Of a DNA stretch of 64,000 nt, positions 14,115 to 64,000 are shown piece after piece. Made by a program: the position numbers and the translations under genes. Below the pieces are notes generated by a model, which ran no database searches, was not told the origin of the DNA, and saw only the letters and a program-made list of their open reading frames with translations. This stretch comes from a phage: NCBI GenBank assembly GCA_029942545.1, contig GCA_029942545.1_4114.1. The stretch is one strand, 5' to 3'. Each line of letters starts with the position of its first letter. Position 1 is the first letter of the stretch.

Positions 14115-14137
14115 TATTGAAAATAAATGTGAGGTTG

Positions 14138-16802: not shown

Positions 16803-16803
16803 T

Positions 16804-17377: not shown

Positions 17378-17388
17378 TACAAATTATC

Positions 17389-17417
17389 TTGACAGTACGG
17401 TAAGGTAGTGCTATAGT
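17389..17417 (+). promoter_or_regulatory. sigma70-type promoter (TTGACA-N17-TATAGT)
   Basis: -35 17389-17394, -10 17412-17417. Confidence 0.55.
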
Positions 17418-17457
17418 ACTTTCACATTTAATGTACGTTCAATAAAGGGTAGATATT

Positions 17458-17703
17458 ATGTTAAATTTTTTAAATTTCCTTATCGTCTTGTGTATTGTTC
17501 TTGGAATTGCACCGTTTGTATTAGCGTATCTGGATTCAGATGAAATGCAGAAGATGAATTGCACAAAGACAGGACAGAGTAGAGAAGAGACGGTTATGAT
17601 GCCTGTAACGGTTATTGTGAATAACATACCAATTACGAACATGATTCCTACCCTAACGACAACGTACCAGTACTCTTGTGCAGACGGAGAGAGGTGGAGA
17701 TGA
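17458..17703 (+). CDS. small membrane protein (81 aa)
   Basis: hydrophobic N-terminus LNFLNFLIVLCIVLGIAPFVLAYL; own promoter. Confidence 0.55.
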   Translation: MLNFLNFLIVLCIVLGIAPFVLAYLDSDEMQKMNCTKTGQSREETVMMPVTVIVNNIPITNMIPTLTTTYQYSCADGERWR

Positions 17704-18020
17704 AATTTAATATAGCAAAAACATCTAATGTATGTATATTTGGTTATGCTGATGAGTTAGGTGATCTTGACATTCTATTGTACAAAAAGGATGGTGTTAT
17801 GCATTTCAAGTACCAGGATGAAGAGGCAGACAATTATCCTTTACCTAATTTAGTACAAATGCAGGAAGAGGAATTATTCCAGTACAGCTTAGTATATGAC
17901 ATTGATATTTGCACGATGCCAGTACTAATTAATATTCAAAAAGTGATGCTCGATGTGTTTGATAGGCTAATACAAGGCACACAAGGAAGAACCATATATG
18001 TCAATGTACAAGACAATTAA
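17700..18020 (+). CDS. family B paralog
   Basis: motif QEEELFQYSLVYD; ATG 17700 overlaps upstream stop (ATGA); track start 17676 is upstream. Confidence 0.6.
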   Translation: MKFNIAKTSNVCIFGYADELGDLDILLYKKDGVMHFKYQDEEADNYPLPNLVQMQEEELFQYSLVYDIDICTMPVLINIQKVMLDVFDRLIQGTQGRTIYVNVQDN

Positions 18021-18213
18021 TCAAGAATGGAAGACCCAAAAGTACAGGGAATTCAGTACTAGTTTAACAAAAGATGAATTGAATTTAAAAAGAACAGAGT
18101 TTGATATGTTTATTTTTCTTGGAACACGTTCACAGGAACAATACATTCATTATTATATAAGTTCATTGCGAACGGAGATCGTATGCAAAACACAGGGTAT
18201 TATAAAAAAGTAA
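17998..18213 (+). CDS. family A small paralog (interspersed in family B array)
   Basis: motif FLGTRSQEQYI. Confidence 0.6.
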   Translation: MSMYKTINQEWKTQKYREFSTSLTKDELNLKRTEFDMFIFLGTRSQEQYIHYYISSLRTEIVCKTQGIIKK

Positions 18214-18449
18214 ACCAATATTTGTACGCATCGAAGTACAGGGATTTTTGTTTAAAGGGTGGTGATGAAGATTTTTCTTTGCGATTATCAGAATTTAATC
18301 TGTTATTTTATCTTGGTACATCGGAACAAGAAGAAATGGCACAGAAATTTATCAAGCACCTTGAACAAAAAATTCATATGCAAATTTTGATGCTTAAGGT
18401 ACATAATGAGATAAACAAATATGAACCCAACAATAGTACAGGATCTTAA
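18183..18449 (+). CDS. family A small paralog (interspersed)
   Basis: motif YLGTSEQEEMA. Confidence 0.6.
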   Translation: MQNTGYYKKVNQYLYASKYRDFCLKGGDEDFSLRLSEFNLLFYLGTSEQEEMAQKFIKHLEQKIHMQILMLKVHNEINKYEPNNSTGS

Positions 18450-29523: not shown

Positions 29524-29834
29524 AAAACTTATTCAGTGTTCAGTACGTTCCTGGTGAAATTGGTTTATTGTATCTATTTGACCATGATAATTCATTATTA
29601 CTAGTAGTGAAGAAATGCCAAGCTAGTTCGTTTGTTGAATACATTCACGATAGTGAATACATTCCTGATTTCCTAGAGTGTGATTATCACGATGAACATG
29701 AATCATTTATTTTTCAGGAATCACTAGTATGGGATAAATCGATCAACTTCTTTACGTTAATTGAATTACAAAAGCAGGTGAAGTATTATTGGGATTACTT
29801 AATTACACAGGATTACATTGAGATTGAAACATAA
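29520..29834 (+). CDS. family B paralog
   Basis: motif HESFIFQESLVWD. Confidence 0.65.
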   Translation: MKNLFSVQYVPGEIGLLYLFDHDNSLLLVVKKCQASSFVEYIHDSEYIPDFLECDYHDEHESFIFQESLVWDKSINFFTLIELQKQVKYYWDYLITQDYIEIET

Positions 29835-30142
29835 TGACAAAAAATGAATTTGATTCACTTTGTACGGTTTATAATTCATTGACAGAAATACCTGACTTTA
29901 TTAATTACGTTTCAGCTTTAAATCAAATTATGAATAGTTTTGAACAATCGTTTGAAGAGAAATATGCAGGTAGAAAAGTTCTATGTCATATGTCAATGTA
30001 CTTGGGAGATGGTGAGCCTTACACTACCAGTACTACATGTGAAATAAAAAAATATAATATATTATTGGGCACGATAGAATTCACAGTATCCAATGGTGGT
30101 AGTTATATGTACTTTAGAGATGGAGTGGTTGAATTATTATGA
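29834..30142 (+). CDS. hypothetical protein (102 aa)
   Basis: ORF track; no family motif. Confidence 0.5.
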   Translation: MTKNEFDSLCTVYNSLTEIPDFINYVSALNQIMNSFEQSFEEKYAGRKVLCHMSMYLGDGEPYTTSTTCEIKKYNILLGTIEFTVSNGGSYMYFRDGVVELL

Positions 30143-30588: not shown

Positions 30589-31121
30589 TGAAAGTTAACA
30601 TCAATGACTTTGATGCATTACAAGATTTATCAAAAAAGATTCGTATCATCGTACCAGTACTCAAAAAATGTAGTACTGGTTTAATTGATCCTAGTACTGT
30701 TGTTAATGAGAAGTACAATTTTCATCGTGTATTACAGGGTACAGGTGCATTTCAGAAGTGTGATGTACGTGAGAAACACGTAATTGATACCTCATTGTTT
30801 TCTATTGGTGCACCTGTGTCGAATAATTCTATTTTCCTGGATAACGCAGGAAATATTCAACAATTAACATTTAAGAAAAGGAAAAAGAACAATAACATTG
30901 GTGTGTACGCGATGAAGTGGGGTCAACCTGATTTGAAGCGTGAAATTCACATCCCTAAGTACAATTACAATGCATTTGACGAACAGTGTTTTCAACTATC
31001 GTGTACTGACCCTGACTATGCAATCATTCAGTTCTATATGGAATTGCAGATAGCATTTAACAGTAATTTATATATTAACTTGTTGGCAATGAACATCGAT
31101 GAAGTATTCAAAAACATTTAA
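30588..31121 (+). CDS. family B paralog
   Basis: motif FDEQCFQLSCTDP; ATG 30588 overlaps upstream stop; track start 30585 is GTG. Confidence 0.6.
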   Translation: MKVNINDFDALQDLSKKIRIIVPVLKKCSTGLIDPSTVVNEKYNFHRVLQGTGAFQKCDVREKHVIDTSLFSIGAPVSNNSIFLDNAGNIQQLTFKKRKKNNNIGVYAMKWGQPDLKREIHIPKYNYNAFDEQCFQLSCTDPDYAIIQFYMELQIAFNSNLYINLLAMNIDEVFKNI

Positions 31122-31317
31122 TCGAATTGAATACATGAGAACTGTGAGTGCAGTGTGGGATATATGGTTCACTACTAAACCAAAAATGGATTACCATGAC
31201 TTTAAGCTCTTGTTCTTCGTTGGCTCTAACAAACAGGATGTTGCAATGAAGGGTTATATTCAGCACTTACAGGAACTAATTCAGAAGAGGGTTAATGAAA
31301 ATAATAGACCAAGATGA
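31099..31317 (+). CDS. family A small paralog (interspersed)
   Basis: motif FFVGSNKQDVAMKGYI. Confidence 0.6.
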   Translation: MKYSKTFNRIEYMRTVSAVWDIWFTTKPKMDYHDFKLLFFVGSNKQDVAMKGYIQHLQELIQKRVNENNRPR

Positions 31318-31486
31318 TATTGCTAAACTATTCAATATATATTCTACTAGAATGATGCAAACAGACTCATATAGTACTGAATTCAAAGAGTTGAAAGTAT
31401 TGATGTACTTGGGAACCCAATATCAGGAACAAGTTATTTTGGAATATATTAATTCGTTGAAGAAGGATATCCGTTATGTACGATGA
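31295..31486 (+). CDS. family A small paralog (interspersed)
   Basis: motif YLGTQYQEQVI. Confidence 0.6.
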   Translation: MKIIDQDDIAKLFNIYSTRMMQTDSYSTEFKELKVLMYLGTQYQEQVILEYINSLKKDIRYVR

Positions 31487-47337: not shown

Positions 47338-47724
47338 ATGAATACAAGTTCAATCCTAAAAGCAATTGGTGGTGTTTTACTCATTGAAGTAAAAGGTGAG
47401 CCAAAGCTATGCTGTTTAGAAGATATGAAGAATACAAAACACTTCAGTACTGGTCAGATTTTCAATGCCATTCGTATTCTAAATGACAAATCCATTGCTG
47501 ATTATGGTAAAGTTTGGCCTGTATATCAAAATGCTGATGGTGATATCAGTACTGATTGGAAAACAATTGAGGCGGTACGACAAAGTTGTGAGAGTGATTG
47601 GGACTTCATTGTTGAAGTTTGTGATCAACTACAAGAAGATGTTCCAGAAATTGTCGAACGAAAAGAAGTCCTAGCACGACTTGAAAAATTCCGTCACGGA
47701 ACACTACAGTATGACACAATCTAA
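47338..47724 (+). CDS. hypothetical protein (128 aa)
   Basis: ORF track; RBS GGAGA. Confidence 0.6.
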   Translation: MNTSSILKAIGGVLLIEVKGEPKLCCLEDMKNTKHFSTGQIFNAIRILNDKSIADYGKVWPVYQNADGDISTDWKTIEAVRQSCESDWDFIVEVCDQLQEDVPEIVERKEVLARLEKFRHGTLQYDTI

Positions 47725-51853: not shown

Positions 51854-52448
51854 TACATACTTCCGTTATCTTCGCTTAGGTCTTTCCCTACGTCCGATCC
51901 GTGGAAAGTGCGATTCACTCGCTGACCTTGACTATGCATATGCATTACATCATGAAGGTGTACAGTATGTATTGGGTGATTATGGTGAATTTGAAGAAAC
52001 AAATGACAGTACTGGAATTAATGCTGGTGTAGAAAATCTTAACAACATTGCTAACAGTTCTCGCCATGACATTGTGTTACAGATTCAAAACTTTATTGAG
52101 CAACACACAGGCAAACGTGTTTGGTGCTATGTCGGTACTGATGCACAAATGTCAATTTCATTCGGTAACGATGAAGGATATGTTGCACAGCTTATTATGG
52201 ATTTTGAATCTGAAGAGAAGTTTTTAGAATTCAAAGAAAAGATTATTCAGTCACTTGTTGATATGGGTATCCCCGAAGATAAAATGCCAGAAGTCCAAAA
52301 CATTGATGAATTTGTTTTGATTCCATCTGATGAGAAATATGATGCAATGTTTACTGCTCTTAATATTCCAGGAGTTATTGTGGAGTACTTTGATGATGGT
52401 GATGATAGTATCTATATCGATCTAGATGACGATGACGACGATGAATAA
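51834..52448 (+). CDS. hypothetical acidic-tailed protein (204 aa), TTG start
   Basis: AAGGAG 51821-51826 is 7 nt before TTG 51834; C-terminal DDGDDSIYIDLDDDDDDE; track start 51762 overlaps upstream gene. Confidence 0.5.
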   Translation: MTNTNTNTYFRYLRLGLSLRPIRGKCDSLADLDYAYALHHEGVQYVLGDYGEFEETNDSTGINAGVENLNNIANSSRHDIVLQIQNFIEQHTGKRVWCYVGTDAQMSISFGNDEGYVAQLIMDFESEEKFLEFKEKIIQSLVDMGIPEDKMPEVQNIDEFVLIPSDEKYDAMFTALNIPGVIVEYFDDGDDSIYIDLDDDDDDE

Positions 52449-52453
52449 TGTAC

Positions 52454-52482
52454 ATAGCCCGACATAAGTTCGGGCTATTTTT
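52454..52482 (+). terminator. intrinsic terminator
   Basis: ATAGCCCGA-CATAAGT-TCGGGCTAT followed by T5. Confidence 0.8.
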
Positions 52483-52494
52483 GTAAGGGGATAT

Positions 52495-52770
52495 ATGAAT
52501 TATAAAGTTCTACAATATACATACAGTGTTTTGTTTGATTTACATCACAATGGAAGATATCTCAATACAATACGAGAAAACACATTCACTCATACTATCT
52601 GGATTAATCACTTAATAATGATACGTGAATATTTTGTTAATAGTGAGATAATCATTCGTGGTAAAAAACAGAAGATAGAACAAGTTAATAGTTTTGGTGG
52701 TAAATTAGTACTATCATTTATAGATAGTAATACTAATGAAAGATATAGTATAGATTTGGTGGACATATGA
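52495..52770 (+). CDS. family C small paralog
   Basis: N-terminal MNYKVLQYTYSVLFDL; tandem with similar ORFs. Confidence 0.55.
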   Translation: MNYKVLQYTYSVLFDLHHNGRYLNTIRENTFTHTIWINHLIMIREYFVNSEIIIRGKKQKIEQVNSFGGKLVLSFIDSNTNERYSIDLVDI

Positions 52771-53033
52771 ATTATAAAGATTTCCTACTAACATACAAGA
52801 TTATTCGAGATTTAGCACACGACAATGATAGCCCTAGTCTAGAAGACACATGCACTGAAATGATTCATACGATTCGTGGTAAGATTAAAAAAAAATTCAG
52901 TACTGTTATTATTGGTGATGACCATGCAGAATTTTCTGATATAATCATTAGACGTGATGGTAAAGTTGAGGTTCAGTACTACACTGATTTTGGATTTACC
53001 AGTATTCCGTTGGAGATATTCCCTTGGGATTAA
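52767..53033 (+). CDS. family C small paralog
   Basis: MNYKDFLLTYKIIRDL; ATGA overlap. Confidence 0.55.
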   Translation: MNYKDFLLTYKIIRDLAHDNDSPSLEDTCTEMIHTIRGKIKKKFSTVIIGDDHAEFSDIIIRRDGKVEVQYYTDFGFTSIPLEIFPWD

Positions 53034-53335
53034 ATTTAAATGATATACAATTCACTTATAAGATCCTATATGATTTGTATGATGTATACCTTGTTAGTAA
53101 CAACATAGGTTCACATAACCGATCCAAAGAACAACCATTTATTGATTTATATATTGAGTACTTAGATTCAGTAGGTGAATATATAAAAAAGAATTACAGT
53201 ACTTTTATCGATGGAAATGATAAATTCGATTTCTATGGTGTGCAATCATATAATGGTATAATCCATGTTCAATTTCAGGAAATAACCGATAGGGGATTTA
53301 TCGAGATTAAAGTTGTGAAGTTGGTGAATTTATAA
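53024..53335 (+). CDS. family C small paralog (TTG start?)
   Basis: NLNDIQFTYKILYDLYD; no in-frame ATG near the 5' end. Confidence 0.45.
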   Translation: MGLNLNDIQFTYKILYDLYDVYLVSNNIGSHNRSKEQPFIDLYIEYLDSVGEYIKKNYSTFIDGNDKFDFYGVQSYNGIIHVQFQEITDRGFIEIKVVKLVNL

Positions 53336-53345
53336 GAGGTTACAT

Positions 53346-53657
53346 ATGTTATTAAATGATATACAATTCACATACAAATTTTTGTATATCCAATACGCTA
53401 CGGTTGATGCTGGCGAATATCTCTACAGTGAAATCTATCGTTCGGTATGGATAAAGTTTTTGGATGAATTACATGAATATTACCATGATTTGTGTATAGT
53501 TCGTGATAATAAAATATACAAATTCCGCGATATTGTTAGTCATAGCGGTAAGCTACGATTGGAATTAAGTACTGATAGTGATGTTGATTGGATTGGTGTA
53601 AATTTACTGGAGTTGGAGAATGAAAAACAACTTAAAGGAAATACAAGTATTTTATAA
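53346..53657 (+). CDS. family C small paralog
   Basis: MLLNDIQFTYKFLYIQY. Confidence 0.55.
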   Translation: MLLNDIQFTYKFLYIQYATVDAGEYLYSEIYRSVWIKFLDELHEYYHDLCIVRDNKIYKFRDIVSHSGKLRLELSTDSDVDWIGVNLLELENEKQLKGNTSIL

Positions 53658-53904
53658 ATTCTTATACTTATCATATGTAAAAGATGAGTACTATGAAAGT
53701 GTGTATTATTTTTTATGGCAACATTACCGTACTATAGTAAGAGATTTATATATAGGAAAATCTATCATATCCAATGGTGAAAAATGTACCTGTACGGATG
53801 TAGTTAGTTTTAATGGTTCTTTAACACTGTGTTTCAGATGCGATAATAATAGTGGGTCATTTTCATTAAACGTATATCAGTTAGAAGGAATAAATTTTGA
53901 ATAA
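53620..53904 (+). CDS. family C small paralog
   Basis: LKEIQVFYKFLYLSY. Confidence 0.5.
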   Translation: MKNNLKEIQVFYKFLYLSYVKDEYYESVYYFLWQHYRTIVRDLYIGKSIISNGEKCTCTDVVSFNGSLTLCFRCDNNSGSFSLNVYQLEGINFE

Positions 53905-54097
53905 ATGTCCATATTGTAACAGTACTCAATTAGCTCGTTTCCGTTTAGATTCAGACTGGGCGACTGGTGCTGGTGATTTCTTCCCTATTAATGATGATGC
54001 GGAATACACCGAAGAACAGCACAAAGATTTTGATAAATCATGGCGACCTGACATTGAGTGCATTTATTGCCTTAATTGTGAGCGTGTTCATGACTAA
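53897..54097 (+). CDS. zinc-ribbon protein (66 aa), TTG start
   Basis: CPYCNS ... CIYCLNC; AGGAA 7 nt before TTG 53897. Confidence 0.45.
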   Translation: MNKCPYCNSTQLARFRLDSDWATGAGDFFPINDDAEYTEEQHKDFDKSWRPDIECIYCLNCERVHD

Positions 54098-54353
54098 AGC
54101 TGAACTAATAGTTCATACATATAAAATGATATCAAGTACTGAGTTATCATATAGTGCAGATAATCCAGTACTGGATTATTTTGTTGAATTATTGAAAGAG
54201 CATTATATTGGTAAATCACTGAATATTAATAATATTAATTTCACTATAACGGATGTGGGACCAGGAAAAAACGTACTAATTGTATGTATTACTTCAACTG
54301 GTAACCCATTATACCCAATATCAGTAATTTTTGAGGTATTAGGTGATTTATGA
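54090..54353 (+). CDS. hypothetical protein (87 aa)
   Basis: ATG 54090 overlapping upstream stop; track start 53967 overlaps the previous gene. Confidence 0.45.
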   Translation: MTKAELIVHTYKMISSTELSYSADNPVLDYFVELLKEHYIGKSLNINNINFTITDVGPGKNVLIVCITSTGNPLYPISVIFEVLGDL

Positions 54354-54640
54354 ATATCATATTAATACAAAAAACATATACTCTACTGATGAAAGAATAT
54401 ACTAATACTTATGATGAAAAGTGCAGTGCAAATCATAATATGTATGAATTCATTACTCAAGAGTACAGGGATTATATATATGCTGTGTCAGTGGGTAGAT
54501 ATTTCAGTACTAGAAAATACCCAAAACTTCAAATAGTTGATGTTTCTTTTTATTTCAATGGTCATATTACTATTCATAGTTTAGACCAAGATTCAACAAC
54601 GTACTTAAACTTTTCATTTGATGAGGTAATATTTTTATGA
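54350..54640 (+). CDS. family C-like small paralog
   Basis: MNIILIQKTYTLLMKEY; ATGA overlap. Confidence 0.5.
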   Translation: MNIILIQKTYTLLMKEYTNTYDEKCSANHNMYEFITQEYRDYIYAVSVGRYFSTRKYPKLQIVDVSFYFNGHITIHSLDQDSTTYLNFSFDEVIFL

Positions 54641-54813
54641 GAACAGTATTTTTTATCTGGAGTCTTTTATCATTGGCAGTACTGACAGTATGTGGGATTT
54701 GTTTCCTTTCATCAATTAATACTTGGTATATCAATTTACTATTTCCATTTGTCGGTGTTGGTTTAGGGTTTACTTTGCATAGTGTATGTAAGGATTACAA
54801 TGAGAACAAATGA
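54637..54813 (+). CDS. small membrane protein (58 aa, two predicted TM helices)
   Basis: ATGA overlap; FFIWSLLSLAVLTVCGICFL and LLFPFVGVGLGFTL; below track cutoff. Confidence 0.4.
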   Translation: MRTVFFIWSLLSLAVLTVCGICFLSSINTWYINLLFPFVGVGLGFTLHSVCKDYNENK

Positions 54814-55078
54814 AGTACTTATTGCTGAAACAATGAAGATGATTTACAATATCACGTCAGCACAGAATATGCCCTATCCAACTAAGTCTTTATTGAGGAC
54901 TGTGTATCTGGGGATAGTACAGGAGTACTACAAATCCAAGCACAGAAGCATTATTAGTGTTTATCGTGATTATGAAAGGATTCGTATTTTATTCTGGAAC
55001 AAGAATCGAGTACGTTCTGAATGTGACCTAGTGGACTTTAAATTAGAGAATCTTTATTGCTATAAACAGGGACAATAG
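54800..55078 (+). CDS. hypothetical protein (92 aa)
   Basis: ATG 54800 after TAAGGA; track start 54782 is GTG. Confidence 0.5.
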   Translation: MRTNEVLIAETMKMIYNITSAQNMPYPTKSLLRTVYLGIVQEYYKSKHRSIISVYRDYERIRILFWNKNRVRSECDLVDFKLENLYCYKQGQ

Positions 55079-55136
55079 TTTAATTCATGATATAATAATG
55101 GGTAAGGAACAATAATTAACACAAGGAGTGTGTGAA

Positions 55137-55865
55137 ATGCTTGACCGTATCCGTTTCGCTACAGAGATGGCGAATGAATTAAACATGGCAAATTTCCAAA
55201 TGTTAACATCAGTAATGGCTGAACATGCATGTGCTTATTCTGTAAGTGGTGTGCAGTGTGGTCAGGAGAATATGTTAGCAGATGTTTATAGTGAAGTGCA
55301 AAGTAAGCAATATAGTGTAAAGACATATAAGGATAAGTTTGTTAGTCTTTATATGAACGAAGATATTGCCGAAGACCGTAAATTCACTGATTTTATTATT
55401 GAACGACGAGTATCAGGTGTATCTAATCCTAATGCATCAAGCGAGGAAGTTTTTGCAGAAGTACTGAAAGATATATACGAAAATGAATTAAAAAGTAAGA
55501 ATCATTACAATGTACGTGAAACTAACACAGTGCTCTTGGGATATGATGAAGACGAAGAATACTATTATTTTCGTATGACTGAAGTTCCTTTTGAATACAA
55601 ATCTCCATATACAACTACAGTGAAAGAATTTACTGAAAAAAGTAAAAACTTCATGAAGCATGAAGGAAATCGTTGTAGTATAAATGGTTATGACGAAAAT
55701 GGCATTCACATTTATGAATGGGTTCACCCAAATTGTCAGACATACACTCGTTGCTTGAAAAAACGTTATAATTTAGAAGAGCATGAATCATTCTATTTTA
55801 AAGTTAAGAAGCAAGGTTATACTCGCCCCGCCGATTCTGAATTGATGGGTATGATATATTTCTAA
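55137..55865 (+). CDS. hypothetical protein (242 aa)
   Basis: RBS AAGGAG 55123-55128 before ATG 55137; track start 55128 is GTG. Confidence 0.6.
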   Translation: MLDRIRFATEMANELNMANFQMLTSVMAEHACAYSVSGVQCGQENMLADVYSEVQSKQYSVKTYKDKFVSLYMNEDIAEDRKFTDFIIERRVSGVSNPNASSEEVFAEVLKDIYENELKSKNHYNVRETNTVLLGYDEDEEYYYFRMTEVPFEYKSPYTTTVKEFTEKSKNFMKHEGNRCSINGYDENGIHIYEWVHPNCQTYTRCLKKRYNLEEHESFYFKVKKQGYTRPADSELMGMIYF

Positions 55866-55875
55866 GGAAACTTCT

Positions 55876-56157
55876 ATGGATTTTTATCTACACACATGGA
55901 CATACGAACAATATATTACATTATATCTTGAAATTATTAACACAGAACCTAGGTGTGGTTGTAGGTTCGCAGATATCATAAAAGAGTATGCTGACGAGTT
56001 CGAGTTTGTGTATCTTGGGTCTGATATATTTGTAAAAAGTGTAGGTAAAACCGGACGAATCACTGATATAGATTACGACACTGTTAGTGTGAATTTCTAT
56101 GTTGATTTTCCTGATGCTGGCGTTGATGGTGTATATTGTCTTTATGAAATAATTTAA
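55876..56157 (+). CDS. hypothetical protein (93 aa)
   Basis: ORF track; RBS AAGGAAA; terminator follows. Confidence 0.55.
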   Translation: MDFYLHTWTYEQYITLYLEIINTEPRCGCRFADIIKEYADEFEFVYLGSDIFVKSVGKTGRITDIDYDTVSVNFYVDFPDAGVDGVYCLYEII

Positions 56158-56164
56158 ATTCTTA

Positions 56165-56188
56165 GGCCAGCGTTTGCTGGTCTTTTTT
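56165..56188 (+). terminator. intrinsic terminator
   Basis: GGCCAGC-GTTT-GCTGGTC followed by T6. Confidence 0.75.
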
Positions 56189-56201
56189 CGCAGGTACAAA
56201 G

Positions 56202-56504
56202 ATGTTCAGTATAGATTTAATTAACAGTACTATCAAAATGTTGGCTGATTTGGTGAGACAATCCAATGGAACTTTATATCCATCAATGTATAAAATGTTT
56301 GACCGATACATCAAGGATTGTAACATATCATTATATGGACTTGCTGTTGATATAGACGATTACTATGGAATTAATACTTCATATAAAACAGGAATTTTAA
56401 TTGGTATTAATATAAAGATGGGGTATTTACCTTATTACTGTATAGGATTACCAGATAATACTTTTGTAGAATATCCAGCCAGTACTATTAAATTAAGAGG
56501 ATAA
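56202..56504 (+). CDS. hypothetical protein (100 aa)
   Basis: ORF track. Confidence 0.5.
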   Translation: MFSIDLINSTIKMLADLVRQSNGTLYPSMYKMFDRYIKDCNISLYGLAVDIDDYYGINTSYKTGILIGINIKMGYLPYYCIGLPDNTFVEYPASTIKLRG

Positions 56505-56511
56505 AACTAAA

Positions 56512-57090
56512 ATGAATGTATTAGAATTAAGTACTAAGCTGATTAGTATGCGTAATGAGTGGTACGATTGGTTTTATAATGGTACTGATATGGATTTTTC
56601 AAAATATCCATTTATGGAATCAGGATGTGATGCAAGATACCGCTGGTTGAGCAAAGATTGTTCTGGTTTACATATTCTAGTTGACGATAGTGGTCAGGGA
56701 ATTATAAAAGATTTACTTCAAGTTGAACAACTCGTCCATGATAATTGGTGTGATAACGATCCATACCTTGGAAATATGATTTATGTAAGTGAAGATGATT
56801 GCATATTCGTTATCCAGCGTCATGGTAATTCTATGTTTTATGTAGCAGATAGCAGTACTCCAGAAGGTGCAGCAGCCGATGGACTTATGCCTAAGATTGA
56901 TATATTGGAATTTGGATTACCTGAGCACTTCCAGATTAGTACTTTATACGATATTCCACCACTTGAGTTCTTTGAAGAATTTAAATTGTACTACAATGAT
57001 CTTCAAAAATTGAGTACTGATCGACGCATTGAAATAACTGTTAAGTACATGGACGGAACGAAATTAACTGATACGGGGATAGAATTTTGA
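56512..57090 (+). CDS. family B paralog (outlying copy)
   Basis: motif LPEHFQISTLYD; RBS AAGAGG. Confidence 0.6.
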   Translation: MNVLELSTKLISMRNEWYDWFYNGTDMDFSKYPFMESGCDARYRWLSKDCSGLHILVDDSGQGIIKDLLQVEQLVHDNWCDNDPYLGNMIYVSEDDCIFVIQRHGNSMFYVADSSTPEGAAADGLMPKIDILEFGLPEHFQISTLYDIPPLEFFEEFKLYYNDLQKLSTDRRIEITVKYMDGTKLTDTGIEF

Positions 57091-57776
57091 TTAAAGATTT
57101 AGATAGAATTTTATATGTACTAAGGGGTGTAATTACATTACATCCACAAATCAATCGAATTGAAAGTACATTTCAGTTGGAGTCAAGAGAAACTCCATAT
57201 TCACATATATCAAATGTAGTTGGTTCACTCAGTACTGAAGACTCGTCTTACGATATTTGTGTATGTGAAGTACAACCAAGTTCGGATCTTGGATTTGCTA
57301 TTTTTGATAAAGATCAAAATCTCATTAGTATGTTTCAGTGCAATAATCCTTTTTGGAAAACATGCCTGTATCCAGAGTGGGCTATGCTTGATCCAACCAA
57401 GAGTACCATTAAAGTTTATGACTCTAAAAATGATGAAGTCGTTATTGATTTGGATGAGTCAATGTCAGAGGAAGAACACTTTCAGCTAATGATGATGCGT
57501 GCTATGCCGGAATACAATGCAATGATTAACACTGTGCAATACATTAAGGATACCATGCCAGCGTTGCGTACACATGAGTTTTGTCATCCGGTATTGTATG
57601 AACATCTAGATTTAGACTTCAGTACTATTAAATTTAAAGATAGTGTTAAAAAATATATTCAAGAGAATGTTAAATTTGATTTTATTAGTACTATGAACAA
57701 TAATCCAAAAACTAATTTTAGGCATCAGTACAATGAATCTTTGTCTAATGGACGTGATACCAGTTGGTGGAAATAA
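57087..57776 (+). CDS. family B paralog (outlying copy, TTG start?)
   Basis: motif SEEEHFQLMMMRA; only start candidate is TTG 57087 overlapping upstream stop. Confidence 0.5.
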   Translation: MIKDLDRILYVLRGVITLHPQINRIESTFQLESRETPYSHISNVVGSLSTEDSSYDICVCEVQPSSDLGFAIFDKDQNLISMFQCNNPFWKTCLYPEWAMLDPTKSTIKVYDSKNDEVVIDLDESMSEEEHFQLMMMRAMPEYNAMINTVQYIKDTMPALRTHEFCHPVLYEHLDLDFSTIKFKDSVKKYIQENVKFDFISTMNNNPKTNFRHQYNESLSNGRDTSWWK

Positions 57777-57777
57777 T

Positions 57778-58041
57778 ATGAATATTCAAGATAGATTACA
57801 ATTACTGTACACACTTGAACAGGCTGCTTATGATCTTGTTCGAAAAATCTCAGATGAACTACCTAAAGGAACTAAAGTTCGTGTACGTGAGATGAATTAT
57901 TTTTCTGGAGTAATTGAAGAACAAGTACTAACAGTGAATAAAGTAACATACTATGAATCTGAGTTGTCTATTCAGTGTGAATCTGATGATGGATTAATAT
58001 CATATTATGGAACTGATGTAGATATAGAGGTAATAAAATGA
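57778..58041 (+). CDS. family D small paralog (GK-x-V-R motif)
   Basis: LPKGTKVRVREMNYFSG; ATG 57778; track start 57733 is upstream. Confidence 0.5.
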   Translation: MNIQDRLQLLYTLEQAAYDLVRKISDELPKGTKVRVREMNYFSGVIEEQVLTVNKVTYYESELSIQCESDDGLISYYGTDVDIEVIK

Positions 58042-59180
58042 CCCTTTTGCAAATATATGAAGATTTAATGCACTTATGTAATACAAACGATGCATTCTTT
58101 TATGTGGATCATAAAAGTCCTGCTGGTGGCACGTATCGTGTATTCAGTTATCGTCTAGCATCATACACTGATTTCATGCAACCAAATGCGTTGGAAACCC
58201 GTGGCTCTATGTGGGAAATTGATGAAGAAGGTGAAATGATACGTTGTGCAGCACGTACAATGAAAAAGTTCTTCAATGCTTACGAGAATCCTGCTACAAT
58301 GTTCCCTGCTAACACCACATGCGATGACATTGCGGTAGTGATGCCTAAGTTGGATGGTTCGATTATCAGTACTTACCGTGATAATGATGGTGAGATTCGT
58401 TGTAAATCACATACTGCATTGTATTCTGACCATGCGATTAACAGTACTCGACTTATTAACGAGAACCAGAATTTGTATCAGTACATCGACGAAGCGGAAC
58501 GTTTAGGTTACACAGTTAATATGGAGTATACAAGCCCAGAGTACCGAATTGTATTACCATATCAGGTAGAACAACTGTTTGTACTGAACGTTCGTCATCG
58601 TGTGAGTGGTGAGTTGCTATGTGGTAAAGCACTACGTGATAAGTTTCCATGTCTTGCACAGTACAGTACTAATATGACTGGAAAAGATATTCATCACACT
58701 TTTCCGGTACGAAATACCTTCCGTGAAAGCGTGGAGGAAGTTCATAAAATGCTTGATATTGAGGGTTTTGTGTGCATCCTAAATAATGGGACAATGTGTA
58801 AAATAAAGACTGACTGGTACAGTTCATTACATCTTACAAAAGATAGTATTATTATTGATTCTCATTTATATGAAGCAGTATTAAATGGTTCAAGTGATGA
58901 TTTAAAACAATTGTTCAGTACTGATGAATATGCTATGCAAAAGATATTAAGAATGGAACAATTGGTATTTTCGTGCTATAATGCATTACAAGATGAAGTA
59001 GAAAGCTTCGTCAAGGAACACAAGCACTTGGAGCGAAAGGAATTCGCAATGAAGGTTCAGGAGTGTTTAACTAATGAACTGAATCGTCAGGGCTTGGCCT
59101 TTGCAATGTATAACAATAAGAAAGTTGATTACAAAGAGACTCTTATAAAATACATGAAAATTGTACTAAAGGATTTTTAG
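58038..59180 (+). CDS. rnlA: RNA ligase 1 (T4 RnlA-like)
   Basis: 380 aa; N-terminus and nucleotidyltransferase lysine motif VMPKLDGS align with T4 Rnl1 as recalled (from memory, no search); conserved C-terminal WYSSLH-like region. Confidence 0.85.
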   Translation: MTLLQIYEDLMHLCNTNDAFFYVDHKSPAGGTYRVFSYRLASYTDFMQPNALETRGSMWEIDEEGEMIRCAARTMKKFFNAYENPATMFPANTTCDDIAVVMPKLDGSIISTYRDNDGEIRCKSHTALYSDHAINSTRLINENQNLYQYIDEAERLGYTVNMEYTSPEYRIVLPYQVEQLFVLNVRHRVSGELLCGKALRDKFPCLAQYSTNMTGKDIHHTFPVRNTFRESVEEVHKMLDIEGFVCILNNGTMCKIKTDWYSSLHLTKDSIIIDSHLYEAVLNGSSDDLKQLFSTDEYAMQKILRMEQLVFSCYNALQDEVESFVKEHKHLERKEFAMKVQECLTNELNRQGLAFAMYNNKKVDYKETLIKYMKIVLKDF

Positions 59181-59210
59181 TACTATCTAGCCTAAGCACA
59201 AGGAGAAGTG

Positions 59211-59465
59211 ATGGCTAAACCTAAGTATAAAAATGACGGTTCCCTTTCTCCGACTGAGTTCAGGAAAATACAAGAAGAAATCGATGAATTACAGCACAAA
59301 CGCTCAATGAAAGGTGTGAAGATAAGTAAGAAACGAATCGAGAATACCTTCGGATGTAGTAGTACTGAATACAAGAAGAAAAGGAAACCAAAAGGTGTTA
59401 AGCCGAGAATACATGATGTAACTCGCTATACATCGAAACGTGAAAATAAATTTGACCCACTATAA
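59211..59465 (+). CDS. small basic protein (84 aa)
   Basis: RBS AAGGAG before ATG 59211; K/R-rich. Confidence 0.55.
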   Translation: MAKPKYKNDGSLSPTEFRKIQEEIDELQHKRSMKGVKISKKRIENTFGCSSTEYKKKRKPKGVKPRIHDVTRYTSKRENKFDPL

Positions 59466-59474
59466 GGAGTTCAT

Positions 59475-59711
59475 ATGAAAGTTGAAGTTCAGCATAGTAT
59501 TGTTCAGGATATGTCAGTAGTTAAATTTCTTTCCTTGAAAGATTATTTCAGATGTATCAAGTTCCTAGAAGAATCTCAATTACAGTGGACCCCATTAAAG
59601 TACAGTTCATCCAATGATACTGCTAGTATTCGTTGTGATGAATCTGTACTTGTGAAAATCTCCAAGCGATTTGGAGTTGGGAAATATAATGATAAACAAT
59701 GCACAAAGTAA
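59475..59711 (+). CDS. hypothetical protein (78 aa)
   Basis: ORF track; RBS AAGGAG. Confidence 0.55.
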   Translation: MKVEVQHSIVQDMSVVKFLSLKDYFRCIKFLEESQLQWTPLKYSSSNDTASIRCDESVLVKISKRFGVGKYNDKQCTK

Positions 59712-60000
59712 TTTACTATATATAAAGTCAGTAGAAGCTGAAATTAAAAATTCAGTACAAACTATCGTCGATGAAATGATTGACAAATACAAGAGCAATC
59801 TTATTGGGAAGAAAGTCAGATGTTGGGATTACACATTTAAACACTGGTACGATTCCGAGATTGTGAAAGTTGATGTGAATACTGATAGTAATGGTCTAAT
59901 TAATGGTATTGCGTATATTGGTGTTTTAATACGAAAGGGAACACCACAGGAATGGCTCACCTATCATAATATAGAGCATGTTAAATTTTTAGAGGATTAA
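59689..60000 (+). CDS. family D small paralog
   Basis: LIGKKVRCWDYTFKHWYD; ATG 59689. Confidence 0.5.
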   Translation: MINNAQSNLLYIKSVEAEIKNSVQTIVDEMIDKYKSNLIGKKVRCWDYTFKHWYDSEIVKVDVNTDSNGLINGIAYIGVLIRKGTPQEWLTYHNIEHVKFLED

Positions 60001-60003
60001 AGG

Positions 60004-60936
60004 ATGCCAACTATCACACTAACAGTTGGATTGCCTGGGTGTGGTAAAACTACATGGGCAGTGCAAGAGATTAAAAAAGCCAAATCCAAGACTATCAACA
60101 TCAACCGTGATGATATTCGTGAATCTATGGCTGGGTCACATGATGCTTACAAATTCAACGATGCTAATGAGCAGTACGTAGATAATTTACAGTTCAGTGC
60201 AGCAAATTCAGCAGCAGAGAATGGTTGGAACATCATAGTATCCGATACAAACCTTAAACCACATTTCCGTAATCTCTGGAAAGTATGGGCTACAGATAAT
60301 GGTTATGATTACAAAGAAAAGAACTTCTATGATGATTTTGTACCTAATGAAGACCGTGGTGCAGATGTTCATGAATTCTTTAAGATTAAAGAGTTCGTAA
60401 AACTTTGTAAGAAATATAACCTCCAGCGTGAGCGTTCAGTACCAGATGATATCATTGACAAAATGGCAGATACGTACTATTATAGTAAAGCATTACACAT
60501 TGGTTACTATGGTAATTCACGCGAAGCTGCTATCATCGTTGATATCGATGGAACTCTTGCTCATAAATGGGGTCGTAATCCTTACGATGAAAGTACTGTT
60601 CTTCAGGATACACCTGATGAAGAAGTTATTTTGTCTATTATCGCTGAAGCAGTTTTTCATAAACGCAAGATTATCGTCATGAGTGGGCGTACTGAAGGGT
60701 GTCGTGCGGATACCGAACAGTGGCTTAAGAATTGGGGTGTTCCTTACGATGCATTGTTTATGCGAGATATCGATGATAAACGTCCTGATGATGTTGTAAA
60801 ATTCGACCTGTACATGAAAAATGTGGTTGATCATTACGATGTTAAAAAGGTATATGATGACCGCGATCAAGTTGTATTCATGTGGCGTAAGCTACTTGGG
60901 TTGAAAGTTTTCCAAGTGGCTGAAGGAAATTTCTAA
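60004..60936 (+). CDS. pnk: polynucleotide 5'-kinase / 3'-phosphatase (T4 Pnk-like)
   Basis: N-terminal P-loop GLPGCGKTT; C-terminal phosphatase motif VDIDGTLA (DxDGT); 310 aa; directly downstream of RNA ligase. Confidence 0.85.
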   Translation: MPTITLTVGLPGCGKTTWAVQEIKKAKSKTININRDDIRESMAGSHDAYKFNDANEQYVDNLQFSAANSAAENGWNIIVSDTNLKPHFRNLWKVWATDNGYDYKEKNFYDDFVPNEDRGADVHEFFKIKEFVKLCKKYNLQRERSVPDDIIDKMADTYYYSKALHIGYYGNSREAAIIVDIDGTLAHKWGRNPYDESTVLQDTPDEEVILSIIAEAVFHKRKIIVMSGRTEGCRADTEQWLKNWGVPYDALFMRDIDDKRPDDVVKFDLYMKNVVDHYDVKKVYDDRDQVVFMWRKLLGLKVFQVAEGNF

Positions 60937-60940
60937 TACA

Positions 60941-60967
60941 AAAGGGATCATATATTGGTCCCTTTTT
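60941..60967 (+). terminator. intrinsic terminator
   Basis: AAAGGGATCA-TATAT-TGGTCCCTTT with T-rich tail. Confidence 0.75.
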
Positions 60968-61003
60968 CTTTTAAGGTACATTATAGTGAATGTAACAACA
61001 CAG

Positions 61004-61162
61004 ATGTTATTACAAAAAGACTACTTAGAAAATATAGAACGATACTATAGATTGTCTTTGTATGAAAATAAGCATAAAAATTATAGTTTTGATAAACTAC
61101 TAAATTCCAGTACTGATGATTATCTATTTTCATCAATGTTTTATGTGAGAGGTTTATTATAA
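61004..61162 (+). CDS. small hypothetical protein (52 aa)
   Basis: ATG 61004; stop overlaps next start (TAATG); below track cutoff. Confidence 0.3.
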   Translation: MLLQKDYLENIERYYRLSLYENKHKNYSFDKLLNSSTDDYLFSSMFYVRGLL

Positions 61163-61422
61163 TGGATAAATTTCACACAGATATAACACAGATAGGTAAT
61201 CTTATCAATAGTCTAATTACTGATTTAGAAGAAAAGTACTTAGGTCGAAATGTATACGTAGAAATGTATGAAACATATGGTGTTATTGATATGATTTATT
61301 ACAGTGCATTGAAGTGTGAAATACGTTTAACAGTATGTTTGTTTGAAAAAAATACATTCAACAGAAGTACTGCAATTCGCCAAGTTGGAGTTGATGATAT
61401 AGAATTATACGAGGAACAATGA
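61162..61422 (+). CDS. family D small paralog
   Basis: LEEKYLGRNVYVEMYETYG. Confidence 0.5.
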   Translation: MDKFHTDITQIGNLINSLITDLEEKYLGRNVYVEMYETYGVIDMIYYSALKCEIRLTVCLFEKNTFNRSTAIRQVGVDDIELYEEQ

Positions 61423-61673
61423 TGTTTGAGCAGGACTTAGAGATATTCAAAAGTCATATTGATTACTTGACTATATTAGAAAATGATTTAACTACAAAGT
61501 ACAAAGGCATTCGTGTTCTGTGCTGGTATGATGATTGGGATTATAAACGTGAACTCACGATTGATCGAATTTATTTCAGTGACGGTGTACTAAATGTACA
61601 TGGTGTAAATGATTTTGGTCATTCATATACATATTCTAATAATGCTAAATTTAAAAGGATCTACAATGAATGA
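61419..61673 (+). CDS. family D small paralog
   Basis: LTTKYKGIRVLCWYDDWDY; ATGA overlap. Confidence 0.5.
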   Translation: MMFEQDLEIFKSHIDYLTILENDLTTKYKGIRVLCWYDDWDYKRELTIDRIYFSDGVLNVHGVNDFGHSYTYSNNAKFKRIYNE

Positions 61674-61968
61674 ATATTATCATAATTTATTCGATTACAT
61701 AAAACTAATAGATGATCTTTCTTTTGAATTTCTCAGTACTGAAAAAGTTCTTGAACCTCTCTATTATGATTGTATTAGTTCACTATGTTTAGATGAAAAA
61801 GAGATATTAGCAAACAACTTACCATCCACGGTCTGTACAATCAATGGTTCCAAGGCTTTAGTGTGCGAGGTTAATTTTCATAAATCACTTAATACAATTG
61901 TTTACAAGTTCGATAACACTTGGGTAAATCATGTAACCAGTAATATTAAATCTGTGAGATTTTTATGA
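61666..61968 (+). CDS. hypothetical protein (100 aa)
   Basis: ATG 61666 (MNEYYHNLF); track start 61609 is upstream. Confidence 0.5.
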   Translation: MNEYYHNLFDYIKLIDDLSFEFLSTEKVLEPLYYDCISSLCLDEKEILANNLPSTVCTINGSKALVCEVNFHKSLNTIVYKFDNTWVNHVTSNIKSVRFL

Positions 61969-62261
61969 ATATAAAAAAATTATTTGAACAAGTAAATTTA
62001 TTGTACTGGTGTTCAGACGGGTCAGATAAAGAAAATAGTGAAGCTTTTTTAGAATTATTCAGAAATGAAATACACATAATTAGAAGATACTTAATTGATA
62101 ATAAAACTGAAGTAAAAGTTAGATACCATAATGGTACTTTAAAGAATGGTGTAATTATTGGATTGATAGTTACACGAATGTCTAATAATATTAAAGTTGC
62201 AGTTAGATTAATGACTGATGATGGTGTCTACACAATAGAAGCTAGTGAGATTATATATTAA
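61965..62261 (+). CDS. family D-like small paralog
   Basis: NKTEVKVRYHNGTLKNGVIIG; ATGA overlap. Confidence 0.5.
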   Translation: MNIKKLFEQVNLLYWCSDGSDKENSEAFLELFRNEIHIIRRYLIDNKTEVKVRYHNGTLKNGVIIGLIVTRMSNNIKVAVRLMTDDGVYTIEASEIIY

Positions 62262-62567
62262 ATGGATATACAAACATTCAATAAACTTAAGTACTATGAT
62301 GATGGTTTTGCATTAATAATTAACGAACTTGATGGAATACCATACGAATATCATAATCAAGTAATGAAGATAATAAAATGTATATGTGAAGAATTAAAAA
62401 GTATATTTAAAAATGAATATGTTTATGATTTAGGTAATAATAGCAAAAAACTATACATAAAGAAATTCTGGGGAACGCATTGCGGTTTGATGGTCGATTT
62501 AGGTTTAAGTTTAGACGATAATTCTGAATCATGTTCATTATATATAGATGAAATGCGAATATCATGA
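62262..62567 (+). CDS. hypothetical protein (101 aa)
   Basis: ORF track. Confidence 0.5.
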   Translation: MDIQTFNKLKYYDDGFALIINELDGIPYEYHNQVMKIIKCICEELKSIFKNEYVYDLGNNSKKLYIKKFWGTHCGLMVDLGLSLDDNSESCSLYIDEMRIS

Positions 62568-62624
62568 GACGTATCAGAATTCGGTGATATAATTTGATTA
62601 CATCACCAATAGGGAGAAGTTGAA

Positions 62625-62951
62625 GTGAATGGTTCGTTTTTAACAATATTAGAAAAGACAACCGAGATGCTTTCTAGCTCGTTAATGCAGATTTTCAGTA
62701 CTAATAATTTATACAATACCCAGGTGTTAGATTCAATTAATAATAACTATGTGGTAAGTATATCTGATGAAATATGTCCATTTAACGCGTATTCAATTTA
62801 TAGTGTAGAAGAGTTTCATATATCCGAGATTCGATGTGGTTTTGGTGCTTGGTTAGTTCTAAATGAACGTTCAGGGTTGTCTTTATACATCGAAGAAGTT
62901 AGTAAATTTATATACAAAGGAGTAGAATATGTTAACCCCAATTATTCTTAG
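62625..62951 (+). CDS. hypothetical protein (108 aa), GTG start
   Basis: AGGGAG 62611-62616 is 8 nt before GTG 62625; the nearby ATG is out of frame. Confidence 0.5.
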   Translation: MNGSFLTILEKTTEMLSSSLMQIFSTNNLYNTQVLDSINNNYVVSISDEICPFNAYSIYSVEEFHISEIRCGFGAWLVLNERSGLSLYIEEVSKFIYKGVEYVNPNYS

Positions 62952-63570
62952 CAGTGCATATGTAATCGGTATTATTATTTCTGGTATGCTTGCATATAAC
63001 TATAACCGAAGTGTTCTAGGTTATGTAGTACTTGGTACAGTACTAAGTCCAGTGATTGCCATTGGTCTTCTTGTTATGCTAGGTGAGAAAAATACAAGCT
63101 TCTTTATTACTAAAGAACTTGATAAAATCACTCCAGCACCAGAAACAGTTATTCCAGAAGTTAAAGAAGAAGTTAAAGAAGAAGTTAAAGAAGTTGAAGT
63201 TCAAATGCAAGTTAAAGTGTATAATACACTTGAAGAAACTGATTCTAAAGTTGTAGTGAATGTAGTTCCAGTCGTTGAAGATGTGAAACCAAAAGCTCCT
63301 AAAGTACAGAAAAATACTAAAACTGCAAAGAAAGCTCGTTACACTAAAGGTAAGAACAAAGGTAAATCTAAGGATGAACCACAACTAGGTGTTCATGACC
63401 ATACTGCACAAATTGCAACGGCAGCGACCGCAGCAGCAATCGTAACATCACCAATCTACAACAATGATGATTACAGTGATTATAGCCGTCACAGCAGTTC
63501 TTCCTCTGATTCTTGTTCCTATGATAGCTCTAGTTCTGATTCAAGTTCATCGTCTGGAAGTTGTGATTAA
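62929..63570 (+). CDS. membrane protein with EVKEEVKEEVKEVEV repeat and Ser-rich C-terminal tail
   Basis: two N-terminal hydrophobic segments; low-complexity repeat; SSSSSDSCSYDSSSSDSSSSSGSCD tail; RBS AAAGGAG. Confidence 0.6.
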   Translation: MLTPIILSSAYVIGIIISGMLAYNYNRSVLGYVVLGTVLSPVIAIGLLVMLGEKNTSFFITKELDKITPAPETVIPEVKEEVKEEVKEVEVQMQVKVYNTLEETDSKVVVNVVPVVEDVKPKAPKVQKNTKTAKKARYTKGKNKGKSKDEPQLGVHDHTAQIATAATAAAIVTSPIYNNDDYSDYSRHSSSSSDSCSYDSSSSDSSSSSGSCD

Positions 63571-63899
63571 TGTCAATGAAACCACTAATTCAACATAATA
63601 TTTTTTATAGGTCATTATTCAAAATTCAAGATGATTTTTATCAGACGTTGAGTAATGATCTTATAGGTAAAACTGTACGATATTCGGAACAATACATCAA
63701 ACGTATGACAAGTGAGTATATTGACCCTGAATACGAATACGACATTGAACACATTAATCCCAATACTAGAATGAAAATCATTGAGATATTTAAGAATGGG
63801 AGAACTATAGGTGCTGAAATTGAGTACTTGAATTGTGATTGTTACATAGATACCGAGTTAAGTTTGGATTATCTTGTTTTAGTGGATGATGAGGAATAA
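63570..63899 (+). CDS. family D small paralog
   Basis: LIGKTVRYSEQY; ATGA overlap. Confidence 0.5.
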   Translation: MSMKPLIQHNIFYRSLFKIQDDFYQTLSNDLIGKTVRYSEQYIKRMTSEYIDPEYEYDIEHINPNTRMKIIEIFKNGRTIGAEIEYLNCDCYIDTELSLDYLVLVDDEE

Positions 63900-63901
63900 T
63901 T

Positions 63902-64000
63902 ATGATAACATTTTTTGCAATATATGGTTTTGTAGCATTTGTTACATTTATAACCAACTTTCTAGTACTTAATTGGGGTTGTTTTAAAGATGAAATCATG
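63902..64000 (+). CDS. hypothetical membrane protein (5' partial, runs past window end)
   Basis: ATG 63902; hydrophobic MITFFAIYGFVAFVTFITNFLVL; no stop inside the window. Confidence 0.4.
   Translation, partial: MITFFAIYGFVAFVTFITNFLVLNWGCFKDEIM

Follow-up and report, generated by a model that had tools for sequence, protein, structure and literature searches.

Results

Two groups of small genes in an Asteriusvirus jumbo phage

The 64,000-nucleotide stretch of DNA analyzed here (contig GCA_029942545.1_4114.1, hereafter the window) belongs to an Asteriusvirus jumbo coliphage of the PBECO4/121Q group, with a genome of ~350 kb, and is 99% identical to phages UB and JP4. We focused on the accessory region between 52495 and 63899, in which an original prediction, made from the letters of the window alone, had placed two families of small paralogous genes, C with seven open reading frames (ORFs) and D with six, in addition to two other families (A and B) in the same window. 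We found that C is an old tandem array of seven genes, that most of the proposed D genes form a family once orthologs from other phages are included, and that the two families are probably distantly related within a single superfamily.

Every gene of the region is carried by the + strand, whose ORFs cover 94% of the window. Only rnlA and pseT can be recognized there as enzymes, and public records call all the other genes "hypothetical protein". Bases 52000-64000 are 98-99% identical, at 97-100% coverage, to UB, JP4, PBECO4, phAPEC6, and relatives, and 96.7% identical to 121Q.

Family C is an old head-to-tail array

The C genes, and the single gene that interrupts them, are listed below with the evidence for membership.

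52495..52770, + strand: C1, 91 aa; E 4e-7 to C5, leave-one-out rank 1 (E 6.5e-9), in converged C profile
52767..53033, + strand: C2, 88 aa; start overlaps the C1 stop by 4 nt, E 5e-5 to C3, in converged C profile
53024..53335, + strand: C3, 103 aa; pairwise matches and converged C profile, structure predicted
53346..53657, + strand: C4, 103 aa; E 5e-8 to C5, converged C profile, 26-nt repeat shared with C3 at 92% identity
53620..53904, + strand: C5, 94 aa; pairwise matches, leave-one-out, and converged C profile
53897..54097, + strand: zinc-ribbon gene, 66 aa, inside the C array and not a family member; CxxC...CxxC in the translation
54090..54353, + strand: C6, 87 aa; matched by C5 at E 7e-4, recruited to the C profile at E 6e-15 in the second round, leave-one-out rank 5th
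54350..54640, + strand: C7, 96 aa; leave-one-out rank 1, joins the C profile at E 4e-11

We compared the 164 + strand ORFs of the window all against all using phmmer, and we ran iterated profile searches in a pooled database consisting of the window ORFs, the related regions of phages K64-1, vB_Ec-M-J, Munch, GAP32, JNE01, and CBB, database orthologs, and reversed-sequence decoys. For C6, the start was taken as the annotated ATG at 54090 and not the GTG at 53967. Pairwise matches among the window ORFs, with E values of 1e-4 to 3e-8, join C1 to C5 (52495, 52767, 53024, 53346, and 53620), and a hidden Markov model (HMM) of five C members matches C7 (54350) at E 1.2e-3. The iterated HMM search converges on exactly the seven window ORFs that had been proposed, with zero decoys. 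When each member was left out in turn, six of the seven ranked first among ~159 ORFs, and C6 ranked fifth. The similarity predicted for the seven ORFs is therefore significant, both pairwise and in iterated profiles, and the N-terminal (F/Y)TYK-type motif is present as well, although the only invariant column of the alignment is the Y of TY(K/S/T), with C5 displaying FYK.

The C genes are contiguous on one strand, with the zinc-ribbon gene at 53897-54097, which overlaps the end of C5 and the start of C6, as the sole interruption. Traces of duplication can be seen in the DNA. The 5' ends at 53036, 53352, and 53632 have a 26-nt repeat in common (92% and 77% identity), while a 54-nt repeat that includes the ribosome-binding region recurs at 52489 and 52761, the 5' ends of C1 and C2, at 70% identity. 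These repeats are spaced by 272-316 nt, which equals one gene unit. The best DNA remnant is the one with 92% identity over 26 nt, and the duplicates display a protein identity of 13-27%. C is thus a head-to-tail array produced by old tandem duplications of a ~270-316-bp unit. Neither the remainder of the window, searched with strict profiles, nor a further 150 kb of the nearly identical phage UB (90-140 kb and 203.8-303.7 kb) yielded another C member, and the family thus consists of this single array.

Family D is partly recovered through orthologs in other phages

The six ORFs that had been proposed as D, and one that had not, are as follows.

57778..58041, + strand: D1, 87 aa; matches K64-1 ORF L002_11717_12004 at E 6e-5, joins the D profile at E 6e-7
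59689..60000, + strand: D2, 103 aa; leave-one-out rank 1, joins the D profile at E 1e-21, structure predicted
61162..61422, + strand: D3, 86 aa; used to seed the converged D profile, matches 29834 pairwise at E 2e-4
61419..61673, + strand: D4, 84 aa; joins the D profile at E 9e-4
61965..62261, + strand: proposed fifth member ("D5"), 98 aa; not supported as D, weakly C-like
63570..63899, + strand: D6, 109 aa; borderline D-HMM match at E 2e-3
29834..30142, + strand: further D member, 102 aa, located within the family B array, not in 52495-63899; pairwise match and D profile

Significant pairwise alignments, by which the original prediction had proposed to judge its families, are absent from D, since no phmmer match at E < 1 was found among the six ORFs. 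In leave-one-out tests with window sequences alone, 59689 ranked first, 63570 fourth, and the other four 16th to 41st, with a significant result for 59689 only. The motif proposed for the family, (L/K)xG(K/R)xV(R/Y), is exact in 59689 and 63570 and is not found literally in the other four. Moreover, an iteration seeded with D6 (63570) recruited reversed decoys, which means that E < 1e-3 alone is not a safe threshold for such small, biased proteins. These four results are what one might expect if only C were real and D were a chance grouping of unrelated small ORFs, which have in common a helix-then-strand pattern and a loose G-K-x-V string.

We nevertheless consider a chance grouping quite unlikely. 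Since a window-only iteration started from 61162 and 29834 stayed at its starting size, ortholog intermediates are needed for D. In contrast, the search seeded with 61162 in the pooled database converges on 61162, 29834, 61419, 59689, and 57778, with zero decoys, passing through orthologs from three other phages. In addition, 57778 and 59689 each match the K64-1 ORF that lies just upstream of K64-1 rnlA (E 6e-5 and 1.5e-4, respectively). The D alignment is consistent from end to end, with a helix, then K-Y-x-G-K-x-V, then strands, and a final I-E-x-L/I. Furthermore, 29834 belongs to phrog_11429, which D3 and D4 match weakly. D6 is a probable member: its D-HMM score of 13.7 bits was reached by 0 of 2000 shuffled sequences, and the hhalign probability is 80% over only 31 columns.

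Four of the six proposed ORFs (57778, 59689, 61162, and 61419) are therefore firm members, 63570 is probable, and 61965 had been misassigned. The D-HMM score of the latter is reached by 64 of 2000 shuffles, its C-HMM score by only 8 of 2000, and hhalign aligns it to C with 28% probability. The proposed list had also missed 29834, together with two probable relatives at 54800 and 55876 that are described below. Scanning the same 150 kb of UB yielded exactly one more D member, an 83-aa gene immediately past the window end (G17_00471). D hence forms one cluster at 57.8-64.6 kb, in which rnlA, pseT, and various small genes are interspersed, and has one outlier at 29.8 kb. Taken together, C and D bear out the prediction of small paralog families that are tandem or clustered in the accessory region.

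D4 also shows a likeness outside both families. Its residues 11-70 resemble the N terminus of a conserved 128-aa protein encoded at 47338-47724 (E 3e-5 and 4e-4 in the pooled database), which is present in all the RaK2-like phages examined (CBB_66 and GAP32_062). On this sequence likeness, the 128-aa protein may share a domain with the D family or may be its source.

C and D probably belong to one superfamily

We predicted the structure of one representative per family using AlphaFold2, and both models display helices followed by a β-meander. The C3 model (53024), from a 31-sequence alignment, has a predicted local distance difference test (pLDDT) score of 85.5 and a predicted TM-score (pTM) of 0.75, with helices at residues 5-25 and 33-57 followed by four strands. 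The D2 model (59689), from a 16-sequence alignment, has a pLDDT of 74.5 and a pTM of 0.48, with one long helix (residues 4-38) followed by five strands.

Comparison of the converged C and D profiles using hhalign gave a probability of 72.7% (E 3e-5) over 64 columns, which correspond to the helix preceding the G-K-x-V strand and the whole β region. Reversed profiles gave 0.1%, and ~45 control ORFs never exceeded 12%. Sub-threshold matches of the C-HMM point the same way, since the 19 best that come ahead of the first decoy include D4, D5 (61965), 54800, and D-family orthologs at the D3, D4, and D5 positions, along with orthologs of 61666 and 62625. The C-HMM score of D4 is reached by 3 of 2000 shuffles. 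On this evidence, C and D are probably not independent and would represent distant branches of one superfamily, which makes it doubtful that the window contains four independent families, as had been claimed. In the hhalign register, helix 2 of C corresponds to the single helix of D, so that C would have, relative to D, an extra N-terminal helix carrying the TYK motif. The layout that the two models probably share begins with N-terminal helices, of which C has two and D a single long one, and continues with a G-(K/R)-x-V strand and a small β domain of 4-5 strands. It is the order of secondary-structure elements and the hhalign register, rather than a superposition of the models, that suggest a common fold.

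Two further genes appear at the periphery of these families.

54800..55078, + strand: probable peripheral relative of C, 92 aa, basic; hhalign to C 27% (E 7e-4, 88 columns), score reached by 1 of 2000 shuffles
55876..56157, + strand: possible peripheral relative of D, 93 aa; D-HMM 11.1 bits, reached by 0 of 2000 shuffles, with an hhalign probability of only 14.5%, near the 12% maximum of the controls

Together with 61965, they are probably peripheral members of the C/D superfamily. The ORFs at 56202 and 61666 gave nothing significant by hhalign or shuffles.

Both families are restricted to this phage lineage. When the C model was searched against BFVD using Foldseek, it matched solely uncharacterized proteins of the same phage group and RaK2. 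The D model matched its own orthologs and then, weakly, small Tudor/DUF1653-type barrels (E 1e-3 to 3e-2, TM-scores of 0.35-0.5). The D2 model resembles SH3-like, Tudor, and Sm-type phage barrels (Hva1_TUDOR and DUF1653) in having a helix and five strands, but C and D show no sequence match to these Pfam families, and the C model differs from Tudor-type barrels in having four strands after a helical hairpin and good matches only in the same phage group. No C or D member scores above the gathering threshold of any Pfam family, and no Pfam family recurs informatively across the alignments, the commonest being SPAN in 4 of 16 D rows (best E 0.091). Sequence profile searches of the PDB found no relative (best E 0.085 and 0.023). 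An exhaustive search of 1.84 billion representative proteins with the D-alignment profile returned 12 proteins at E <= 1e-3, all of them orthologs from this phage group, with no distant relatives, and all the proteins obtained in word-indexed homolog searches were either named from phage records of E. coli, Escherichia, or Salmonella or were unnamed proteins from metagenomes. In PHROGs, each C or D member falls in its own small family of unknown function, with weak cross-matches that mirror families C and D.

The proteins are small (84-109 aa) and mostly acidic, with isoelectric points of 4.4-5.9 except for C1 (8.0) and 61965 (6.7), and net charges from 0 to -10 with a single exception of +1. 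Since most members are acidic, simple nucleic-acid binding is argued against. This bears on whether C and D might be small transcription factors or other DNA-binding regulators that expanded in this lineage, like the expansion of ~35 zinc-ribbon copies reported in Bacillus phage G. The C array does surround a conserved zinc-ribbon gene, whose product is 71% identical (E 7e-35) to K64-1 gp587, annotated as "TFIIS-like", and lineage-specific expansions of small putative transcription factors have been reported in jumbo phages (PMC7824862). However, in addition to the prevailing negative charge, no helix-turn-helix, zinc-binding, or other DNA-binding family was detected in C or D, and we consider such a role very unlikely.

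C and D genes diverge faster than the enzymes that they surround

The genes and signals next to the two families, which belong to neither, are listed below.

52454..52478, + strand: terminator-like hairpin directly 5' of C1; G17 annotates a terminator at the same place
56164-56183, + strand: terminator-like hairpin
58038..59180, + strand: rnlA (RNA ligase 1), neighbor gene outside the C/D families
60004..60936, + strand: pseT (polynucleotide kinase/phosphatase), neighbor gene outside the C/D families
60940-60966, + strand: terminator-like hairpin after pseT

The hairpin at 52454..52478 marks a new transcription unit that begins at the C array. A promoter scan found 68 candidates when 79 were expected from shuffled sequences, i.e., no enrichment, and ARAGORN detected no genes for transfer RNA (tRNA) or transfer-messenger RNA in the whole window (1-64000). 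The neighborhood encodes, besides the RNA ligase and polynucleotide kinase, a Dam-type methyltransferase, a nucleotidyltransferase, and Ser/Thr phosphatases. Right after rnlA, 59208-59465 encodes a conserved, highly basic 85-aa protein. In the 213-aa protein encoded at 62929-63570, the N-terminal segment is hydrophobic and probably spans a membrane, EVKE repeats are present, and the tail is rich in serine and of low complexity.

Comparison with related genomes, which the original prediction had proposed as a check, revealed conserved orthologs, a C copy number that varies, and rapidly diverging sequences. Relative to vB_Ec-M-J, the small C and D genes have ratios of nonsynonymous to synonymous substitution rates (dN/dS) of 0.05-0.43, as compared to 0.06-0.10 for rnlA, pseT, and a conserved 245-aa gene. 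These values, well below 1, show that C and D are genuine coding genes on which purifying selection acts, though in a relaxed form. In a neighbor-joining tree, the copies are 1:1 orthologous with those of vB_Ec-M-J but not with those of JNE01, a phage of the same genus. Compared to JNE01, protein identity is 85% for RnlA, 78% for PseT, and 87% for the 245-aa protein (dN 0.09-0.17), whereas it is 23-57% for the C and D proteins (dN 0.38-0.86), or no counterpart is detectable. Within the genus, the C and D proteins diverge ~3-10 times faster than the neighboring enzymes. Ahead of the zinc-ribbon gene, the window has five C copies and JNE01 three.

Synonymous divergence from vB_Ec-M-J (region L003) is patchy. 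It is 0.05-0.17 at 53346-53904 and 59208-61422 (0.16 for pseT and 0.17 for 60986) and 0.23-1.2 elsewhere, except for 0.09 at 56512-57090. This patchiness indicates recent recombination patches, i.e., mosaicism within the genus. Gene content also differs at two sites, as vB_Ec-M-J carries, ahead of the 245-aa gene, an inserted endonuclease gene of 924 bp (L003 4639-5562), while G17 and JNE01 have an extra ORF of ~85 aa between the 59475 ORF and D2 that is absent from the window (L001 8690-8944 and L006 13160-13414).

In K64-1, whose RnlA is 64% identical, the same zinc-ribbon gene is directly preceded by a C-like ORF, and two borderline C-like ORFs lie downstream of it (best E 4e-3). Likewise, a D-like ORF overlaps the start of K64-1 rnlA (ATGA, L002 12001-12004), just as the stop of D1 overlaps the rnlA start in the window (ATGA, 58038-58041), which suggests conserved translational coupling. 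In the C/D region, gene position outlasts sequence. The D profile took in no ORF from the corresponding positions of GAP32, CBB, or Munch.

The overlap of D1 with rnlA, together with D2 ending 3 nt before pseT, raises the possibility that RnlA and PseT have D-type proteins as accessory subunits or as partners that bind RNA; as Sm/SH3-like barrels, the D proteins would recruit or regulate the repair of cleaved tRNA. In the order of its elements, an N-terminal helix and then five strands, the D2 model fits the Sm fold. On the other hand, no Pfam LSM, Hfq, or other RNA-binding match is present even at E values up to 10, the proteins are acidic, and neither rnlA nor pseT is a direct neighbor of any C gene or of most D genes. 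The proteins also evolve several times faster than the enzymes that they would partner, and D-profile ORFs are lacking at equivalent positions in GAP32, CBB, and Munch. We therefore consider a partnership in RNA repair unlikely.

C and D proteins as candidate binders of host factors

The region corresponds to gp364c-gp390c of phAPEC6. None of the annotated genes in this interval is among the 62 virion proteins of phAPEC6, and the table of proteins identified by mass spectrometry lists nothing between gp347 and gp549 (PMC7247149). Since gp364c-gp390c is absent from the virion proteome, a structural role is unlikely for C and D. Jumbo phages of this clade do have many uncharacterized structural proteins (PMC7247149), which would leave room for virion or decoration proteins, but the phAPEC6 proteome led us to reject this reading. 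We likewise rejected the notion that the genes are spurious ORFs on the basis of dN/dS; the coding density of 94%, the overlap-coupled neighbors, and the conserved orthologs also speak against it. That the C and D ORFs are either virion proteins or spurious is scarcely credible.

The reading that we favor, and that we place just on the probable side, is that C and D are small non-structural binding proteins directed against host factors, for host takeover or counter-defense, which diversify by duplication and divergence. These proteins would be expressed from same-strand operons that also carry RNA-repair genes, and they would act as small binding modules on host proteins. Copies made by duplication would diverge into variants aimed at different targets, as happens in other multigene families of viruses engaged in arms races.

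Several points weigh against this reading. Our literature search turned up no transcriptome for the genus and no partner, phenotype, or host or defense target. Synonymous divergence from JNE01 is saturated, and the apparent speed of divergence may partly reflect replacement of paralogs rather than divergence of true orthologs. C and D are linked by an hhalign probability of 73%, obtained from shallow profiles, and the top 50 BFVD matches of the C model and those of the D model have none in common. The D model is of moderate quality, as its pLDDT and pTM indicate, and comes from an alignment that mixes putative paralogs. Finally, the decoys taken in at E < 1e-3 by the D6-seeded iteration show that iterated searches can drift.

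We also propose, much more tentatively, a broader version of the host-factor reading. C, D, and most of the ~20 unannotated ORFs of 85-110 aa at 52.5-64.6 kb might be a single fast-diversifying superfamily of helix-plus-small-barrel proteins, with each paralog neutralizing a different host factor or defense. In that case, RaK2-like jumbo phages would have a counter-defense island around rnlA and pseT, in which gene positions would stay the same from genus to genus and sequences would become unrecognizable. We regard this version as doubtful.

C and D among paralog families of large viruses

Under strict profile membership, family A has 30 genes (7.0 kb), B 38 genes (18.0 kb), C seven (2.0 kb), and D five to six (~1.7 kb), which together amount to ~45% of the window. 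We estimate that this share rises to ~58% if loosely B-like ORFs with an FQxS motif are counted, and the claim that the four families fill over 60% of the window was thus an overestimate. A and B occupy most of 11-46 kb. The A genes, ~72 aa each, lie at 11038-18449 and 31099-31486, while the strict B members lie at 17036-45428 and display an EExFFQxS motif at the C terminus. At least 11 further B members are found elsewhere in phage UB (106.5 kb and 254-292 kb), where A and C have none. Within the C/D region, the larger ORFs at 56512-57090 and 57087-57776 are B-like rather than C- or D-like, 56512 matching 40786 at E < 1e-3 and 57087 displaying an EEEHFQL motif.

This architecture, which had been called unusual, is not so for the clade. 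In RaK2, ~10% of the gene products have already been reported as paralogs of one another (PMC3622015), and 22 paralogous ORFs have been reported in CBB (PMC5259590). Clustering of paralogs is in itself an ordinary feature of jumbo-phage genomes. As in those phages of the same clade and in other jumbo phages, C and D are small hypothetical genes on the same strand, more alike mutually than to anything in databases. The accounts of the paralogous ORFans of RaK2-like phages that we consulted do not delineate C or D, and PHROGs assigns their members one by one to separate families; their likely link and their turnover within the genus are described here. C and D are therefore a more precisely delineated example of the known paralog clusters of jumbo phages, not described specifically in the accounts consulted.

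Large DNA viruses have multigene families that expand and diverge in arms races with their hosts, such as the "genomic accordions" of poxviruses and the multigene family (MGF) genes of African swine fever virus (ASFV). Like these families, C and D consist of tandem paralogs in the same orientation, differ in copy number between close relatives, are probably non-structural, and evolve faster than core genes; with respect to JNE01, both the difference in copy number and the faster evolution were observed. Unlike the poxvirus and ASFV families, C and D display no recent high-identity amplification, the C duplicates being old (at most 92% identity over 26 nt in DNA and 13-27% in protein). In phage T4, clusters of small non-essential early genes surround rnlA and pseT. 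The C/D region is similar in that small unannotated ORFs are packed on one strand around RNA ligase 1 and polynucleotide kinase, but no sequence relationship to the T4 ORFs was detected, and the T4 ORFs in that region mostly occur singly and not in families of paralogs.

The majority of the genes in RaK2-like jumbo phages lack an assigned function, as do ~83% of the gene products of phAPEC6. Since family resources of the PHROGs type split the C and D paralogs into singletons, comparisons of gene content overstate the number of genes unique to these phages. One or two fast-evolving families around RNA-repair genes would instead reduce some twenty unrelated-looking hypothetical genes to a few testable units, and the C array and the D cluster would be candidates for screens of host-takeover or anti-defense functions.

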